Shown piece after piece: positions 4,690 to 47,036 of a stretch of 64,000 nt of DNA. The notes under the pieces were generated by a model that was not told where the DNA came from, did not search any database, and saw only the letters and a list, made by a program, of their open reading frames with translations. Made by a program: the position numbers and the translations under genes. The DNA is taken from positions 89,058 through 153,057 of the forward strand of contig CBDFHW010000025.1 of the NCBI GenBank assembly GCA_965247815.1, in the 5' to 3' direction. Position 1 is the first letter of the stretch. Each line of letters begins with the position of its first letter. Source of the DNA: Tepidisphaeraceae bacterium (GTDB taxonomy: Bacteria > Planctomycetota > Phycisphaerae > Tepidisphaerales > Tepidisphaeraceae).

Positions 4690-5217
4690 TCAGATGCCCA
4701 GATCCACGGTCGTAAACAGGCTTTCAAACACGTACCCGGCGGCTTCGATGTTCTGCCGCGCGCCTTCGAGCCGGTCGATCGTGCCGACGATCTTTTTTAC
4801 CTTCAACCCCGCGGCCTCGATCGTCTTTGCCGCTTCCACCACCTGCCCGCCGGTGGTCATGATGTCTTCAATAATGACCACGGTCTCGCCAGGATTGAAG
4901 ATGCCTTCGATCTGCTTGTTCGACCCGTAGTCCTTCTTCTGGTTCCGGATAAAGATCGCCGGCTTGCCCGACGCCATCGCCGTCGCCGCCGCCAGCGGCA
5001 CCGCGCCGAGCTCCGGCCCGGCAATTCGGTCCACGTCCGCGGTGATGTGTGCCGCGAACATCCTCCCGAGCTCCAGCAAGATGTCCGGCTGGGTCTCGAA
5101 CCGGTACTTGTCCAGATAGTAATTACTCTTCCGCCCGCTGCGGAGCGTGAACTCCCCACGCAGCAACGCAACCTCGCCAATCCGTTTCGCTAGTTGTTCC
5201 CGCGTCATCGTTCCCAT
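4690..5217 (-). CDS. pyrE: Orotate phosphoribosyltransferase
   Basis: PRPP-binding motif VVIIEDIMTTGGQ. Full-length similarity to PyrE (175 aa). Confidence 0.9.
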   Translation of the reverse strand: MGTMTREQLAKRIGEVALLRGEFTLRSGRKSNYYLDKYRFETQPDILLELGRMFAAHITADVDRIAGPELGAVPLAAATAMASGKPAIFIRNQKKDYGSNKQIEGIFNPGETVVIIEDIMTTGGQVVEAAKTIEAAGLKVKKIVGTIDRLEGARQNIEAAGYVFESLFTTVDLGI

Positions 5218-5699
5218 GCCCCGTAAATATCACGGCATCGGCATCAGGGTCAAACCATCTCAGGGCCGCTCGACTTGTTGGCACCGCTGGTCGTTGTTTT
5301 GAGTCCGATGAAGTTACCGGAAAATCAGCAATACCGGCCTTCTCGCTAGGTGAAATACCGGTACATTGCAGGATCAAACCCGCCATAATCTAACATAACC
5401 TAACATATTTTTGATCTTTTTATCATTACATTGCTTAAAACTGGCAAGTGGCGTTCGTTCGAGACGGCGGTCGATGTCACGCGCAATTCGCCGCCTGAAT
5501 TACAGAAGCCGTCCCGCCGCCAAAACCCAGCGAGTCTCGGTTGACGAACCAACGGGTGCCGAGATCGTACGCCAGCTCCGCGAACCCGAATCGCGGCAGC
5601 ACCGCCGCCGCCGTGCCGGTCAGGCTGGCTACGTTTCTGTAGCCGCGCGGACGATAATTTGCGCGCGACCCAGATCACTATCCCTTACGCCCAAATAGC

Positions 5700-5879
5700 T
5701 CAAGGGGCGTGCAAACCTCTCTCACCCGTATGCCCCAGCTCCGAGGGATGCAACCATTTCCCGTGCGCCGTCGCACTCAACCGTAGGAACTGCTTGACCC
5801 ACAGTGAATAACATTCCATGGTCGATTCCGCCATGCCCCGCTGCTTCGCCACGACGCTGAGTTTTCCAAGCAATCGCAT
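5700..5879 (-). pseudogene. Remnant of tyrosine recombinase (integron-integrase / phage-integrase N-terminal SAM-like domain), 60 aa then stop
   Basis: Minus-strand ATG at 5879 encodes MRLLGKLSVVAKQRGMAESTMECYSLWVKQFLRLSATAHGKWLHPSELGHTGE... This resembles the IntI/Xer N-terminus (EQAYVHWVRAFIRFHG.RHP..LG..EVE). No catalytic domain follows. Confidence 0.4.
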
Positions 5880-6014
5880 GAACCAAACAAATACCAAACT
5901 TTGCTGCGGTGCGTCAACAATATAATATTTCGTTGACAGGCGTCTCAGCAGAGGGCAATCTGGCATTTGCCGATGCGACGCTATGTTGCACCGTCGGTTA
6001 ATTAATCGATAGTT

Positions 6015-6347
6015 ATGTGCCTCCGCCAACTGCCGATCGAAGCATTTGGACCGTTGTGTGACGCCACCTTGCAATCGGTCGCGTGGGTCGACAGCGGTGC
6101 CGACGTGCCGCCGCCGCTTATGGTCACGTTGAAGCTCTGCGGCGGCAACGTCCTTGCATACACCTTCACGTGGGTATCGCACCTTCGCATTTCTCTCGCC
6201 CAGAAGGAACGCGGGTTTTGTCAGCCGTTCAGTTGGGAGTGCAGCGCCCGCCGGCTGGAGGACGGACGCGTTGACGTCCTGTTCGACTTCGCCGGTAACG
6301 GGGCGATCACATTCCAGTGCCAGGACATCTGCGTACCCGGCACATAA
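6015..6347 (+). CDS. Orphan Cys-rich small protein (110 aa)
   Basis: ATG at 6015 in a lower-GC islet. No homology recognised. Could be island cargo. Confidence 0.25.
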   Translation: MCLRQLPIEAFGPLCDATLQSVAWVDSGADVPPPLMVTLKLCGGNVLAYTFTWVSHLRISLAQKERGFCQPFSWECSARRLEDGRVDVLFDFAGNGAITFQCQDICVPGT

Positions 6348-6454
6348 CCCGCCATGCTGTGGACGGCCCCGCGTCGCGTCGAACGTTTGTCCTTGGTATA
6401 GTGTCCCTTGGCGCGTCGCGTTGGCCGCCACAGATTGTCATCCGTTATCCCGCC

Positions 6455-6865
6455 ATGGCAGCGGCTTTGTATAAATTTCGTCTGGGCGACTACCAATCGA
6501 TCACCCTCACATGCGACTCGTACGTCGGCGGCCTCCGGTGCCGAGCGCGTGGGCGGCTCGGGCGGGTCAGTTGGGCGACGGAGACTCAAGTGGCCGCCTC
6601 CGAAATCGAAGCTTTCGCAACGGCTGTCGAGGCGGTGGTTGCCACACTCGTGGGTACCGCGGTGCTCGACCTTCACGGAGACAACCGGATTTGGATCAGC
6701 GTTTCTGTTAATACGTACGGGAGCGTTCGAACGGACTACGAAGTCTCCGGCAACTCCGGCGGGCTGAGCCGAACGGGTTGGCACGCCGGCGGCGCATACG
6801 ACTGCTGGCATCTCCACTACTTGAAACAGTTCCCGTTCCGCAGTTCGGCGGCGGGATTCGAATAA
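6455..6865 (+). CDS. Orphan hypothetical protein (136 aa)
   Basis: ATG at 6455 (MAAALYKF...) in the islet. No recognisable domain. Confidence 0.25.
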   Translation: MAAALYKFRLGDYQSITLTCDSYVGGLRCRARGRLGRVSWATETQVAASEIEAFATAVEAVVATLVGTAVLDLHGDNRIWISVSVNTYGSVRTDYEVSGNSGGLSRTGWHAGGAYDCWHLHYLKQFPFRSSAAGFE

Positions 6866-6953
6866 GGGGGCATCACTCGAACTGGTCGTTAGATTCTAAG
6901 GCTTTGTTCCTGCGGGCTCGCTTTTCGATTTGGAATTCGGGCGTTTTGATCCT

Positions 6954-7079
6954 GTCGGCTGGCGTTTCAACTTCAAATACCGGCATTTCAAACCTCTCGG
7001 CTGGCATTTCAACTTCGAATACTGGCATTCCGATCGGGTCGGCTGGCATTTTGACTTTAAATGCTGGCGTTTCTCCACC
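6954..7079. repeat. 42-bp tandem repeat x3 (each with an internal 21-bp half-repeat)
   Basis: Units at 6954-6995, 6996-7037 and 7038-7079 (gtcggctggcRtttcaacttcRaatacYggcatt...). Spanned by three overlapping ORFs in different frames. Confidence 0.85.
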
Positions 7080-7425
7080 GCTTTCTTCGTTCATTCGGGG
7101 AACTACTCTTTTAAAGCGGGTTGTATCTGACCCATAAAGAATAAGAAGGGGCCATTCCTAATTTTATTATCTGTCTAGGCCTCGTACGACTGACGTACTC
7201 TTAGCGAAGATCAACGAACGCCGGTTCATAGGAATGCCCGGCTTAAGGACTGCGTTGAACGAGTGCTGTTGACCGCCGCCCAATGCTGCCGAATGACTCA
7301 CTATGATTGATGATCATCGTCTCCGATTCATTCGGATTATCGAAAAGAACCCGGGACGAGTCGACTGCTCTGCTGACGACGGACCTGACTCTGAGATTGA
7401 TGATTAATACGCGGCGCTATTTTTA

Positions 7426-8556
7426 ATGGTAACAGTCAGTCAGCGAATCTCGCTTCGCGGCAGATTGTCATGGCACGCTTGCTTGTCCGGTTCTTACGCT
7501 GCGATTATTCTATTACTCGTGGCCAAACCCTTGAAAATCGGATCGGTGCAGTTGCGGAACAACCTGCTTCTTGCGCCCATTGCCGGGTATTGCGATCTGG
7601 CGTTTCGGCTGGTCGCGCGGGCGTGCGGCGACGTCGGGCTGGCCTGCACGGAACTGCTCTGCCCGCACGGGGTGCTCCGCGAGAATCGCAAGTCGATGGA
7701 ACTGGCCATGACCTGCGAGGCGGACGCTCCGCTGTGCATGCAGCTGTACGGCGGGAATGTCGAACTGCTTTGCGAGGCGGCGCGGTGGGCCGAGGACCGC
7801 GGGGCTCATGTCATCGACATCAACATGGGTTGCCCGGTCGATAAGGTGACCAAGCTGGACGGCGGCAGCAAGCTGCTCTGCAACCCCGATCATACGTTGA
7901 AAATGGTCGAGCGGATCGCGGGGGTGCTGCGCAATGTTCCGCTGACGGCCAAGCTGCGATTGGGCTGGGACGACACGTGTCTGGTGGCCCCGTATCTCGC
8001 GGCCCGGCTCGAAGAGACTGGCGTCAAGCTGGTCACTATTCACGGTCGAACCACCGCGATGAAATTCACTGGTCAGGCCCGGCTCGACGGCATCGCCGAA
8101 GTCGCCGCTGCGGTGAAGAACATCCCGGTCATCGGAAACGGCGACATCCGCACGCCGCAGGACGCGAAACACATGATCGGCACGACCGGCGTTGCCGGCG
8201 TGATGATCGGCCGGGGAGCGTTGTCCACGCCGTGGATCTTCCGCGACACCTGGAGCTACCTCACGACAGGAACCATCCCGCCGCCGCCGACGGTCGAAGA
8301 GATCTGCGACCTGATGCGAATGCATTTTATGGGGATGGTGCAATATCGCTGCGAACGGGCGGCCGTGTGCGAGTTCCGCAAGCGGATCAGCTGGTATGCC
8401 AAAAATCTGAACCCCTGTTCGCACCTGAAGGCCGAGATGCGGACGATCGAATGCGTCGCTGATTTCGAGGCCGCGATCGGCCGGTTCCTCGAGTTCCGTC
8501 GAACCCGGGCCGGAACACCGGTCGAAGAATCCGTCGCCGAGTTGGTCCTCGCCTAG
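7426..8556 (+). CDS. tRNA-dihydrouridine synthase (Dus family, DusB-like)
   Basis: Dus signature (LLLAPIAGYCDLAFR ... DINMGCPV ... KLRLGWDD). The true start is possibly the GTG at 7519, because the region upstream of it is AT-rich. Confidence 0.85.
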   Translation: MVTVSQRISLRGRLSWHACLSGSYAAIILLLVAKPLKIGSVQLRNNLLLAPIAGYCDLAFRLVARACGDVGLACTELLCPHGVLRENRKSMELAMTCEADAPLCMQLYGGNVELLCEAARWAEDRGAHVIDINMGCPVDKVTKLDGGSKLLCNPDHTLKMVERIAGVLRNVPLTAKLRLGWDDTCLVAPYLAARLEETGVKLVTIHGRTTAMKFTGQARLDGIAEVAAAVKNIPVIGNGDIRTPQDAKHMIGTTGVAGVMIGRGALSTPWIFRDTWSYLTTGTIPPPPTVEEICDLMRMHFMGMVQYRCERAAVCEFRKRISWYAKNLNPCSHLKAEMRTIECVADFEAAIGRFLEFRRTRAGTPVEESVAELVLA

Positions 8557-8676
8557 CCGCGCTCGAATGCTGCCGAGTGTTCCGACGGCCTTCGAACTTC
8601 GCCCGACCGTGTGAAGCCCGGCCGTGTGAACGCTTGTACGCCGGCCGCGCCCGGTTTAAAGTCTCTGCCGCCAACC

Positions 8677-9627
8677 ATGAATGTGCCTTCGTTTTTAACG
8701 GCCGTCCCGACCACGCTTCGAGAACTGGGCGCGCTCCCGCTTCCGGACTGGGTCCATCGGGTGTCCGGGCTCGCTTCGCCGGTCGGGATTCGCTGGGGCG
8801 ACGGCATCGGGGTCGGAGCGTGCAACTCGCGCGATTTTGCCCGAGTTTCTGTGAAGATTGCGAACGCCATCGACCTTGGCGGCGATGCGTTACAAAAATC
8901 GGTTCGGCTGGCGTATCGAAAACTTTTTGAACAGCTCGCGGCGACCACCGGTTTCTATCCGGTGCGATTCTGGAACTTTATTCCGGGCATCAACGACTCG
9001 CTCGAACGGCAGCAGACCCGTTACATGATTTTCAACGCGGGGCGGTTCCTGGCATTTAAGGGGCACTACGGGGAGGTTGACCTTTTCGACCGAAATGTTG
9101 CCACGGCATCGGGCGTCGGGCACCGCGGGAACGACCTGTGGATTCACTGTCTCGCGTCGCAGGTTCCGGGCGTCCATCTCGGTAATCCCCGGCAGTTGTC
9201 GCCTCATAATTATTCCGCGCGGTTCGGGCGGATGCCGCCTTGTTTCGCGAGGGCGACCCGGCTCCGCGATCAGATATTTATCGCCGGTACCGCGAGCATC
9301 CGCGGCGAGGAATCGCTGCACGACGAGCTGGGAAATCAGCTGGCGGAAACGCTGACGAATCTCGCCTGTGTCACCGAGGCCGCGTCGGTCGTCGGTCCCG
9401 CGGCGTGCCGATCGCAGGCCAACTGGCTGGCGAAACTGACTGACGTCCGGGTCTACCACCCGCGCCCGGCGGACGCGCCGATCATCAGCCAACGTCTGCG
9501 TGAACGACTCGGTGGACGGCCGCGCCTGGAATTTATCCATGCGGATTTGTGTCGGTCAGAACTACTGGTCGAGATCGAGGCGCTGGCGGACCTGTCCGAG
9601 CGAACCAAGCAAGGAGTTTTGCAGTGA
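8677..9627 (+). CDS. Chorismatase-like protein (FkbO/Hyg5/XanB2 family) with C-terminal RidA/YjgF-like domain
   Basis: C-terminal RidA-like motifs (FIAGTASIRGEE...ETLTNL...LLVEIEALA) plus an N-terminal extension of about 150 aa, as in hydroxybenzoate-forming chorismatases. The stop overlaps the next gene (GTGA). The alternative GTG start at 8611 is also possible. Confidence 0.5.
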   Translation: MNVPSFLTAVPTTLRELGALPLPDWVHRVSGLASPVGIRWGDGIGVGACNSRDFARVSVKIANAIDLGGDALQKSVRLAYRKLFEQLAATTGFYPVRFWNFIPGINDSLERQQTRYMIFNAGRFLAFKGHYGEVDLFDRNVATASGVGHRGNDLWIHCLASQVPGVHLGNPRQLSPHNYSARFGRMPPCFARATRLRDQIFIAGTASIRGEESLHDELGNQLAETLTNLACVTEAASVVGPAACRSQANWLAKLTDVRVYHPRPADAPIISQRLRERLGGRPRLEFIHADLCRSELLVEIEALADLSERTKQGVLQ

Positions 9628-36486: not shown

Positions 36487-36686
36487 TATCCAATCTCCGC
36501 TCGTAAAACCTTCCGAAGCGTTCACCGCCATTGATGCATGCGAGCGTACTGCGAGTCGGCGCCGCGGCGAAGTGCTTCACACAACTTTCACAATCACCCC
36601 TTTTATCGCGGGCGTCGTTCCGTATGATCCGATCTCAGCCGGTGACCAACGACCGGCCAGCAGCTTGCGGTCAATCAGGTGACAAG

Positions 36687-38180
36687 ATGATTCGAACTAA
36701 AATTGTGGCGACGATGGGTCCGGCGTGTGGTGACGTGGAAACGTTGCTGAGACTTTTCGAAGCCGGGGTCGACGTCTGCCGGCTGAATTTCTCACACGGC
36801 ACGCTCGACGGACACCTGCTGACCCTGCGAAACATTCACGAAGCGGCGAGCCGATACCACGAACCCATTGCCGTGCTCGGCGATCTGTGCGGGCCGAAGA
36901 TTCGGCTCGGTTCGATCAAAGACGTCGACGGGCTCGGCGGGATGCCGATCAGCGTCGGCGACACGCTGGTTATTCAGCGTGACCCGACCGTCGGTGAAAA
37001 AGGCCGGGTGTCGTCGATCTATAAAGAATTTGTCGACGAGGTTTGTGTCGGGCAGCGGGTGTTGGTCGAAGACGGGCTGTTGCGATTCGTCTGCACGGAG
37101 AAAAAGCCGAACGAAATTATCTGTAACTGCACCGCCGGCGGGGTGCTGAAAAGCTCCAAGGGGATCAACCTCCCGGACACGGCGATCAATACGCCGTCGA
37201 TGACCGACCGCGACTGGGAATGCGTCGACTGGGCGGTCGACCAGCGGCTCGATTACCTGGCATTGTCGTTTGTCCGCAAGGCGGAAGACCTCACCGAATT
37301 GCGGTCGTATCTGCAGGACAAGGTCAGCGATATTCACTTGATTGCGAAGATCGAAAAGGCCGAGGCGATCGACCAGATCGACGGGATCATCGACGCGAGC
37401 GACGGCCTGATGGTCGCCCGCGGCGACCTTGGTGTGGAACTTGACGTCGCGATGGTGCCGATCATCCAGAAGGATTTGATCCGCCGGTGTCAGGCGGCGG
37501 GCAAGCCGGTCATCGTGGCGACGCAGATGCTGCAGAGCATGATCGAGCAGAGCTCGCCGACCCGCGCCGAGGTCAGCGACGTTGCTAACGCGATCTTCGA
37601 CGGGACTGATGCCGTCATGCTCAGCGGTGAAACCAGCGTCGGGAAGTTCCCGGTGATCACGGTGCACACGATGTCGCACATCGCCGACGTGACCGAAGAA
37701 TATCTGACCCGGGCCGACACGGCCTCGACGCCGCCGCCGATGGTGAAAACGTCGCTGCACGCCGGGGCGCTCGCCCGGGGCGCGCTGCGGATCGTGCAGG
37801 ACCTCAAAGCCAAGCTGGTTATCATCTGGACCCAGACCGGCACCACCGCGCGGGTGTTCAGCAAGCATCACTTCCCGGTGCCGATCATCGCGTTGTCACC
37901 GGACCACCGGACGTTGCGGCGGATGGCGTTGCACTACGGCGTGATCCCGCAGGAAATGGCCGGTGCACCTGACATGACATTGTTGATCGCGAAGGTCGAC
38001 GAGTTCGTGGCCCAGCAGAAATACGCCGAACGGGGCGACCGCATTCTCATCGTCGCCGGATGGTCACCGGGCACCCCGGGCACGATGAACGGCCTGGTCA
38101 TCCACACCGTCGGCGACACCTGGACCCCGGTCCCCACCGCACAAATGATGCGGCAGATGGTGAAGTCTGAACGAGATTGA
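36687..38180 (+). CDS. pyk: Pyruvate kinase
   Basis: MIRTKIVATMGPA... start and the pyruvate kinase signature region (MVARGDLGVE). 497 aa from the ATG at 36687. Confidence 0.9.
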   Translation: MIRTKIVATMGPACGDVETLLRLFEAGVDVCRLNFSHGTLDGHLLTLRNIHEAASRYHEPIAVLGDLCGPKIRLGSIKDVDGLGGMPISVGDTLVIQRDPTVGEKGRVSSIYKEFVDEVCVGQRVLVEDGLLRFVCTEKKPNEIICNCTAGGVLKSSKGINLPDTAINTPSMTDRDWECVDWAVDQRLDYLALSFVRKAEDLTELRSYLQDKVSDIHLIAKIEKAEAIDQIDGIIDASDGLMVARGDLGVELDVAMVPIIQKDLIRRCQAAGKPVIVATQMLQSMIEQSSPTRAEVSDVANAIFDGTDAVMLSGETSVGKFPVITVHTMSHIADVTEEYLTRADTASTPPPMVKTSLHAGALARGALRIVQDLKAKLVIIWTQTGTTARVFSKHHFPVPIIALSPDHRTLRRMALHYGVIPQEMAGAPDMTLLIAKVDEFVAQQKYAERGDRILIVAGWSPGTPGTMNGLVIHTVGDTWTPVPTAQMMRQMVKSERD

Positions 38181-38197: not shown

Positions 38198-38322
38198 AAA
38201 GGATGAATGATGAACGATGAATGATGAACGAAGAAAGACAGGCGGACAATTCATCGTTGGGGTAGACAAGGCTAAGAATTCTTTGTCTTCATTCATCATT
38301 CATCATTCATCATTCATCGTTC
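38198..38322. repeat. Inverted arrays of heptanucleotide tandem repeats (GATGAAY)x4 ... (ATTCATC)x3 with a 17-bp perfect inverted core
   Basis: Left array 38202-38229 and right array 38290-38315. The perfect 17-mer gaacgatgaatgatgaa (38212-38228) matches its reverse complement at 38299-38315. The whole structure lies directly after the pyk stop. Confidence 0.85.
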
Positions 38323-44013: not shown

Positions 44014-44135
44014 CGAGACGGCTTCTCCAATCAGCACAACCAATTTCGAACCTGACTTATTTCAGCCTACAAATTTTTTCTCGACTTGCGGCATTTCGAC
44101 TGACGCCCGAGAAGGGTGTCATGCGAGGCGTCTGC

Positions 44136-46675: not shown

Positions 46676-47036
46676 TGCCGCATCTTATTCGACTGACGCG
46701 GGCTTGGCATTTCGATTGCTCGGAATCGTTCTCAGCATGAATAGCTTTTTACCTGAACAGGTGGACATCATGGCTATCAAAAGTGTGTTCGACCGCGGCG
46801 GGGATGGCATGACGACAGGCGGGCTGGACCGGTTTTTAGCCCCGCCAGCTCAAGATCATTCGAACCTTCCGGACCGAATCACCGAGCCGGTCGCGAAAGA
46901 CGAGGGTGCGTCGGTCGTGAACTGCGGGGGAGCGGACAAGGATCAGTCTGTCTGCCAGCTGGCCGAGGCAGAGCGGGCGAAAGGAGTCGCTAATTCTGGG
47001 GAGAAGCCGGGCTGATGCCTGCCGGGTTTTGCCGAA

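Follow-up and report, generated by a model that had tools for sequence, protein, structure and literature searches.

A diverged 42-bp tandem repeat with open frames on both strands beside a planctomycetal integron remnant

The question raised by this locus is whether a short tandem repeat that can be read as peptide repeats on both DNA strands encodes a protein, serves as a set of binding sites, or does neither. An initial annotation of the window (the whole stretch of DNA analysed here, 64,000 nucleotides long) had described three 42-bp units, each composed of two 21-bp half-units, had translated them as an aromatic repeat on the plus strand and an acidic repeat on the minus strand, and had also raised the possibility that they are iterons within an acquired islet.

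Analysis with Tandem Repeats Finder and a self-BLAST of the window confirmed the 42-bp units and their 21-bp half-units and demonstrated that the array is larger than first described, with four units instead of three. Tandem Repeats Finder placed the repeat at 6951..7073 with a period of 42, 2.9 copies, 79% matches, 0% indels and a score of 148, and reported a 21-bp period nested inside it. The fourth unit, which is more degenerate, was recovered by a repeat search and by the self-BLAST (75-77% identity over 75 nt, E 1.3e-7). A core of 12 nt, C(T)GGC(R)TTT(C)(R)A, recurs in each 21-bp half-unit of the array; five of its columns are invariant, three are conserved in seven of the eight half-units, and conservation is 85-100% across all eight. 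After the core comes a 9-nt spacer, by turns GC-rich (CCTSTCGG) and AT-rich (TTCRAATA), and the two types share nothing. The phased pattern YGGCRTTTY-N12-YGGCRTTTY occurs three times in the array and never in 100 shuffles. Where the three good units align well, all eight variable columns (8/8) are transitions. The lower GC content noted around the repeat was borne out (0.455-0.52 locally against 0.604 for the window), and a modestly AT-rich stretch with a GC content of 0.455 adjoins the array at 7100-7200. Isolated matches to the core (YGGCRTTTYRAY) were also detected at 44089-44100 and 46705-46716 on the plus strand, both intergenic and beside minus-strand genes; two such matches outside the array are not significant in 64 kb, where 0.63 are expected in total.

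The three ORFs originally listed across the repeat (6930..7130 and 6778..7137 on the plus strand, 6873..7094 on the minus strand) were all found in the ORF listing, together with a fourth that had been overlooked (Table 1), such that start-to-stop ORFs cross the repeat in four of the six frames. The 73-aa minus-strand ORF is laid out as MNEESGGE, seven heptads of the form [MT]P[VAE][FDE]x[VIF][EKG], and a terminal KRARRNKALESNDQFE; in single-letter code its heptads read TPAFKVK MPADPIG MPVFEVE MPAERFE MPVFEVE TPADRIK TPEFQIE KRARRNK. The 66-aa ORF is its exact antisense in the same codon register. Plus frame 0 (VGWHFNFEYWH...) and minus frame 0 (MPVFEVEMPAER...) run antiparallel, a synonymous change in one being a position 1 change in the other, and the substitution counts are symmetric. 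A choice of strand from the substitution pattern was attempted and proved impossible, because the changes in these two frames mirror each other. To place the open frames in context, 20,000 arrays of the same composition and divergence were simulated; 40% of these could be read without a stop on both strands, and four or more frames were open in 5%. Since such frames appear in 40% of the simulated arrays, readability on both strands is weak evidence for a product. The peptide repeats of the original description are literally correct as translations, but no frame shows coding selection, a homologue or a public gene call.

Table 1 Coordinates of the repeat array, the open frames that cross it and the neighbouring integron-related features (positions in the window)
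Feature	Position	Strand	Description
intI N-terminal fragment (integron-type tyrosine recombinase)	5703..5879	-	divergent from the cassettes; out of frame to ~5400, then lost
Integron cassette 1	6015..6347	+	110-aa orphan ORF, coding-like (GC3 0.77), publicly called (P0054)
attC of cassette 1	6337..6457	+	GGATAAC-type R''/R' boxes, unpaired spacer, L box with extrahelical base
Integron cassette 2	6455..6865	+	conserved gene (136 aa, function unknown) that runs convergently with the 73-aa ORF
Open frame	6778..7137	+	119 aa, TTG start, overlaps 3' end of cassette gene 6455..6865
Breakpoint	6851..6866	+	three metagenome contigs with this cassette are homologous up to GGCGGGAT
Candidate ORF	6873..7094	-	73 aa, ATG start, ...MPVFEVEMPAERFEMPVFEVETPADR..., acidic, no signal peptide
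Open frame, missing from the initial annotation	6896..7078	-	60 aa, GTG start
Tandem array	6909..7076	.	4 x 42 bp = 8 x 21-bp half-units, 168 bp, no indels
Array units	6909-6950 (degenerate), 6951-6992, 6993-7034, 7035-7076
Candidate ORF	6930..7130	+	66 aa, TTG start, aromatic W/F/H repeat, ...VGWRFNFKYRHFKPLGWHFNFEYWH...
Lower-GC spacer without ORFs	7095..7518	.	between the repeat and dus

The array adjoins an intI fragment and two cassettes, and the region 5703-6865, located between pyrE and dus, is a defunct chromosomal integron composed of an intI pseudogene, two cassettes and one attC. This remnant is previously unreported, and chromosomal integrons in Planctomycetes are already known as a class (PMC4889954, PMC2426708). 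The intI fragment matched the first 40 positions of Phage_int_SAM_4 (PF13495, E 6e-5), gave a weak match to positions 4-45 of the integron integrase model TIGR02249, and aligned with the recombinase N-terminus of the JGI metagenome contig L081 (E 2e-8). In that contig a homologue of cassette 2 is situated between the divergent tyrosine recombinase N-terminus and an element of ~110 bp, which recurs at 6337-6457 of the window, upstream of 6455..6865, and which flanks the gene on both sides in contig L083. The three copies of this attC align at 84% identity. A covariance model of the local attC family detected a single site in the 64-kb window, with 123.5 bits against 18 for the next best. The bottom strand of the aligned copies folds into the classical attC hairpin, in which ATAAC/GTTAT form the R boxes, the spacer is unpaired and the L box carries one extrahelical base (z -2.5). 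The cassette 2 product has homologues of 68-81% identity in metagenome cassettes and a 99% identical 91-aa version (P0052); the same cassette is present in L081, L082 and L083, and its 5' junction, at which G is followed by TTATCCCGCCATGG, is common to different arrays.

Beyond the breakpoint the metagenome contigs run on as AACCAGCC..., which is the R'' box of attC, and the window runs on as TCGAATAAGG. Because the homology stops before the R'' box, cassette 2 is without its attC, the loss lying at position 6858, which is also where the repeat region begins. The covariance model detected no attC in 6859-7518, and no RYYYAAC...GTTRRRY pairs were found. An interpretation of the repeat as an integron gene cassette was consequently rejected, as no attC bounds the array.

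Several side observations were made on this integron material. The attC family appears lineage-specific, with GGATAAC/GTTATCC R boxes that deviate from the textbook RYYYAAC/GTTRRRY, and its copies lie at 6337-6457 of the window, at 855-977 of L081, at 62-177 and 575-604 of L083, and at 1-75 and 473-557 of L082. The stop codon (TAA) of the cassette gene is located within the attC R'' box, and the gene itself, 134-136 aa in length, occurs at 68-81% identity in metagenome arrays of moss or soil type. The integrase N-terminal region of L081, which looks disrupted after ~35 residues, contains a 19-bp x 1.9 tandem repeat at 160-196 (CGACCCATTTGATATCCCG), and the intI of that contig likewise seems to be decaying. 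A 10-bp x 2.4 tandem repeat (CATAACCTAA) occupies 5384-5407 of the window, within the AT-rich sequence that joins pyrE to the integrase remnant, and its minus-strand reading, GTTAGGT/GTTAGAT, consists of heptamers like the canonical attC/attI core. Comparison of the two cassette ORFs found no paralogy between them.

The initial annotation had suggested a search for the repeat unit elsewhere, and the searches performed revealed no other copy in the window, in related loci, or in plasmid, phage, viral or metagenome collections. A degenerate DNA pattern that fits the three good units had 0 matches in metagenome and viral contigs, blastn of 6859-7425 against plasmids and phages returned no match, and the phased core pattern was found in 0 of 87 related loci. 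The dus loci of 80 Tepidisphaeraceae/Phycisphaerae (GTDB species) shared nothing with 5200-7430 of the window, and the closest Dus relatives (P0055 at 91% and P0056 at 84% identity) have a different upstream neighbourhood with no repeat. At the protein level, a word-index search returned no homologue of the 73-aa ORF, the query itself included; Pfam, NCBIfam, PHROGs and PDB searches of the repeat ORFs gave no match, and looking for the peptide pattern in GTDB genomes, JGI metagenomes and IMG/VR was equally negative. Choline-binding-type aromatic repeats were considered for the plus frame and rejected, as there was no Pfam match. An exhaustive phmmer search of the 73-aa product against 1.84 billion representative proteins yielded 48 matches. 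These were rejected as homologues on inspection, since they share period and composition only and consist of AHNAK-like animal repeats (GKFEMPKIDVSLPKLK...) or of simple heptads such as TPAAQVD, KLPGFEV and MKVPAYE.

Taken with the setting, these results lead us to favour, tentatively, the view that the array is leftover repeat DNA without function, a minisatellite whose copies have diverged in a non-coding setting. The copies are head-to-tail, imperfect, placed in non-coding DNA and diverged to about 75-79% identity, as in a minisatellite. Slippage or unequal recombination would have expanded a 42-bp unit, itself containing the 12-nt motif twice, into four head-to-tail copies, and the four copies would since have drifted to their present identity within lower-GC scrap between the broken distal end of the decayed integron and dus. 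The open frames on both strands would then follow from the repetition of a stop-free unit, with no product required. We infer both the slippage origin and the absence of function from a combination of features, namely that no signal of coding, RNA or homology was detected, that the sequence is unique and without gene calls, and that its setting is decaying, the last of which is indicated by the intI pseudogene, the lost attC and the low GC content.

Some features of the array count against pure drift. One to a few indels are expected under pure drift over 168 bp at ~25% divergence, by a rough estimate, and the array has none, its unit lengths being multiples of 3 and 21. In addition, conserved cores beside unlike spacers are hard to obtain by 21-bp duplication followed by neutral drift, which hints at constraint on the core. 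The lack of indels and the conservation of cores beside differing spacers keep two other explanations, a minus-strand protein and a protein-binding array, in contention. The minisatellite interpretation is also opposed by four properties of the 73-aa ORF: its ATG start, a GC1 above its GC2, a codon score equal to that of its neighbour, and a structure prediction of higher confidence than that of its antisense.

The stronger of these two explanations is that 6873..7094 on the minus strand encodes a real orphan protein of 73 aa, acidic, cytoplasmic and largely extended, which we consider possible yet doubtful. The product would be built, on an equally tentative reading, of seven proline-punctuated heptads in which xPxFxVx alternates with xPAxRxx, followed by a basic C-terminal helix. 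Its proposed history carries the same degree of doubt: the protein might have arisen by tandem duplication in acquired DNA, might be transcribed from its own promoter in 7095-7518, and might act as a small binding or decoy protein of the kind found on mobile elements. The architecture of the ORF is in agreement with such a gene in several respects. The ATG is at the first possible codon, the stop is well defined and lies 7 bp from the convergent cassette gene 6455..6865, the units are free of indels and divisible by 3 in length, and the heptad pattern is one used by real proteins, AHNAK-like repeats being the top phmmer matches. The missing Shine-Dalgarno sequence is no objection. Only about 1/3 of the sure genes of the window have one, the motif being sporadic in the genome, and its lack before the 73-aa ORF is uninformative because most sure genes are without it.

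The codon-usage scoring of the frames that the initial annotation had proposed was carried out with a codon log-likelihood model trained on 31 long genes of the window, and it came out neutral for every frame, a result that counts towards non-coding DNA without deciding the matter. In bits per codon, the 73-aa ORF scored +0.08 (0.076), at the boundary, and the other frames ranged from -0.02 to -0.35, with -0.02 (-0.015) for the 66-aa ORF, -0.09 for the 60-aa frame and -0.35 (-0.345) for the 119-aa frame. True-gene windows scored 0.35 +/- 0.16 and off-frame windows -0.48, which places the 73-aa ORF at the 5th percentile of the former and the 95th percentile of the latter. Its score is no worse than that of the conserved and undoubtedly genuine cassette gene 6455..6865 (ORF136, 0.090). 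The 73-aa ORF also has the most gene-like GC1/GC2/GC3 of the four frames (0.58/0.37/0.52), the GC1 of the 66-aa ORF being 0.44. Against its being a gene, its codons oppose the GC3 bias of the genome, with GAA, AAA and CCA used almost exclusively. The 66-aa ORF 6930..7130 is unlikely to be a gene, and the 119-aa frame 6778..7137 and the 60-aa frame 6896..7078 are not coding-like.

Substitutions among the units also speak against the minus-strand protein. No purifying selection confined to one frame was detected among four short units, a comparison of low power, with Nei-Gojobori pN/pS values of 0.4-1.0 in the six frames. The favoured frames gave 0.66-0.80 (minus frame 0) and 0.67-0.70 (plus frame 0), no lower than the non-coding frames, and the lowest value among the four units fell in a frame that contains stops. 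Within the core, the degenerate third positions are invariant (GAA, AAA and GGA end in A; ATG, ACG and AAG end in G) and positions 1 and 2 of the same codons vary, so that synonymous sites are fixed and non-synonymous sites change. An invariant third position beside varying first and second positions looks like conservation at the DNA level rather than the peptide level.

Single-sequence AF2 modelling of the 73-aa product returned a pLDDT of 76 with two short strands and a confident C-terminal helix, compared with a pLDDT of 46 for the 66-aa plus-strand product. This difference in predicted confidence weakly favours the minus strand, and the pTM of the 73-aa model, 0.30, counts on the other side. 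Public gene calls place no ORF over the repeat, and a collection of 15 billion proteins that holds the flanking ORFs P0052 and P0054 contains neither the 73-aa protein nor a homologue. Its regulatory signals are likewise scant, comprising a single weak sigma-70-like site at 7364-7336 (-) and no terminator except a hairpin within the neighbouring gene. Neither this promoter-like site nor a weak terminator-like hairpin at 7083-7102 (+) rises above shuffle expectation. Considering both sides, we regard it as rather unlikely that the 73-aa ORF is expressed as a protein confined to its lineage, one that emerged when a 14-residue unit was duplicated in tandem in the decaying end of a planctomycetal integron.

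The iteron proposal of the initial annotation held in part. The array does adjoin a decayed integron, as expected of an acquired islet, and it does show 21-bp phasing with a 12-nt core; rep and par genes, DnaA boxes, a second copy and an attC boundary are all missing. In its general form, this explanation holds that a protein binds the array at eight sites in phase, one 12-nt site per two helical turns, as in iterons, centromeres or operators, and we judge it improbable. Its suggested origins, either as what is left of a replicon that had integrated or as operators for divergent promoters between the array and dus, are no more probable. The contiguous core is conserved irrespective of codon position and its 9-nt spacers vary, the 21-bp spacing is exact and free of indels, an AT-rich stretch adjoins the array, and the surrounding DNA is acquired; all of these would suit bound sites. 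Plasmid iterons are 17-22 bp long and occur in 3-8 copies, a range into which eight 21-bp units fit. Against these points, no rep, par or DNA-binding gene is found in or beside the islet, where the neighbours are the intI fragment, the two unknown cassette genes, pyrE and dus. DnaA-box matches occur at chance frequency with none near the array, no GC-skew switch is seen, and the units are without dyad symmetry. The matches to the core outside the array do not exceed chance, and the lack of the phased pattern from the related loci and from plasmid, phage, viral and metagenome collections weighs on the same side. Three other DNA-level candidates were rejected: a chromosomal oriC, as there is no GC-skew switch and no DnaA-box cluster; a sigma-54 promoter array suggested by the TGGCA motif, as the -12 element is missing by inspection; and a parS-like half-site (GTTTCAC), as no palindrome was apparent by inspection.

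Function on the plus strand, whether through the 66-aa peptide, the 119-aa frame, or a structured 3' UTR or small RNA made by read-through from the cassettes, is very improbable: the plus orientation of cassettes 1 and 2 makes read-through into the repeat plausible, the terminator-like hairpin lies on this strand and plus frame 0 has the same substitution symmetry as minus frame 0, but these ORFs have TTG starts only, are missing from the protein collection, and fall behind the minus-strand ORF in GC1, codon score and pLDDT, and the RNA has neither a fold better than shuffles nor an Rfam match. In particular, Rfam returned nothing at the gathering score or at E <= 1, folding was no better than that of shuffles on either strand (z -0.89 for plus and +0.47 for minus), and a tRNA search found none. 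A riboswitch, sRNA or structured UTR was rejected on the basis of the Rfam and folding results.

A few observations concern the neighbouring genes. The longest dus ORF begins at ATG 7426, and comparison of its N-terminus with that of a 91% identical relative (L084) suggests GTG 7519 (MAKPLKIGS...) as the start, which would make the non-coding gap upstream ~90 bp longer. The dus product groups the organism with Tepidisphaeraceae/Phycisphaerae. Directly after dus, gene 8611-9627 is hit by the FkbO/Hyg5 chorismatase model TIGR04444 at E 1.6e-33, short of the curated cut-off, and the co-oriented genes that follow it to ~18 kb possibly form a cluster of secondary-metabolite or menaquinone type. Elsewhere in the window, inverted 7-mer arrays at 38202-38235 (GATGAAT x ~4) and 38289-38322 (TCATTCA x ~5) form a long AT-rich palindrome, which begins ~20 bp past the end of gene 36531..38180, after a G-run, and would make a large hairpin, possibly a terminator.

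If the array is leftover DNA, it matters little in itself, being one more orphan minisatellite, and its lesson is that tandem repeats commonly yield open frames on both strands. Its context is of greater use, since it documents that a Tepidisphaerales-like planctomycete carries a defunct chromosomal integron, whose attC family (GGATAAC/GTTATCC boxes) is recognisable and lineage-specific and one of whose cassettes is common to soil and moss metagenome arrays; together, the attC family and the cassette could seed attC models for a poorly sampled phylum. Expression of the minus-strand ORF, for which the peptide FEMPVFEVETPADR provides a sequence that can be targeted, would make the locus a clear example of a gene born from an expanding repeat, caught in the act in integron scrap DNA, and its product would have independently reached the proline-punctuated amphipathic heptad design of animal AHNAK repeats. 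A protein that binds the array would instead point to a relic replicon or to a new operator architecture.

Comparison with known systems helps to place both the locus and its surroundings. The integron at 5703-6865 resembles sedentary chromosomal integrons, as categorised by IntegronFinder, in its divergent intI N-terminus, its cassettes and its attC with R and L boxes and an extrahelical base; it differs in being defunct, with a truncated intI and a single attC, and the repeat lies outside any attC-bounded cassette. The heptads of AHNAK proteins (P0001 and P0004, the top phmmer matches) share with the array a 7-residue period, a proline at a set position and an alternation of hydrophobic with charged residues, and the common strings FEMP and xPxFxVx give an E of 8e-37 by the summing of 34 repeat matches. 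AHNAK proteins differ in being giant and eukaryotic, with no match beyond the repeat and no bacterial relatives among the matches, and the resemblance is one of periodicity and composition only, not homology.

Plasmid iterons (R6K, RK2, P1, F, pPS10) and the 43-bp sopC centromere repeats of F resemble the array in that their direct repeats are spaced ~21 or 42-43 bp apart and number 4-8, the core is conserved, the spacer varies, and an AT-rich stretch adjoins. Unlike those systems, the array is chromosomal, beside the integron remnant, and is without an initiator or partition gene, DnaA boxes or a second cluster; the sopC unit furthermore contains an inverted repeat, which the array unit does not. 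Bacterial minisatellites and VNTRs, the class to which we tentatively assign the array and whose usual hallmark is copy-number polymorphism, are likewise built of a few head-to-tail units of tens of bp, with imperfect identity, an intergenic location and no homology outside the lineage. Relative to these, the array is unusually diverged (75-79%) yet free of indels, and it is set apart by a 21-bp sub-period with a 12-nt core.
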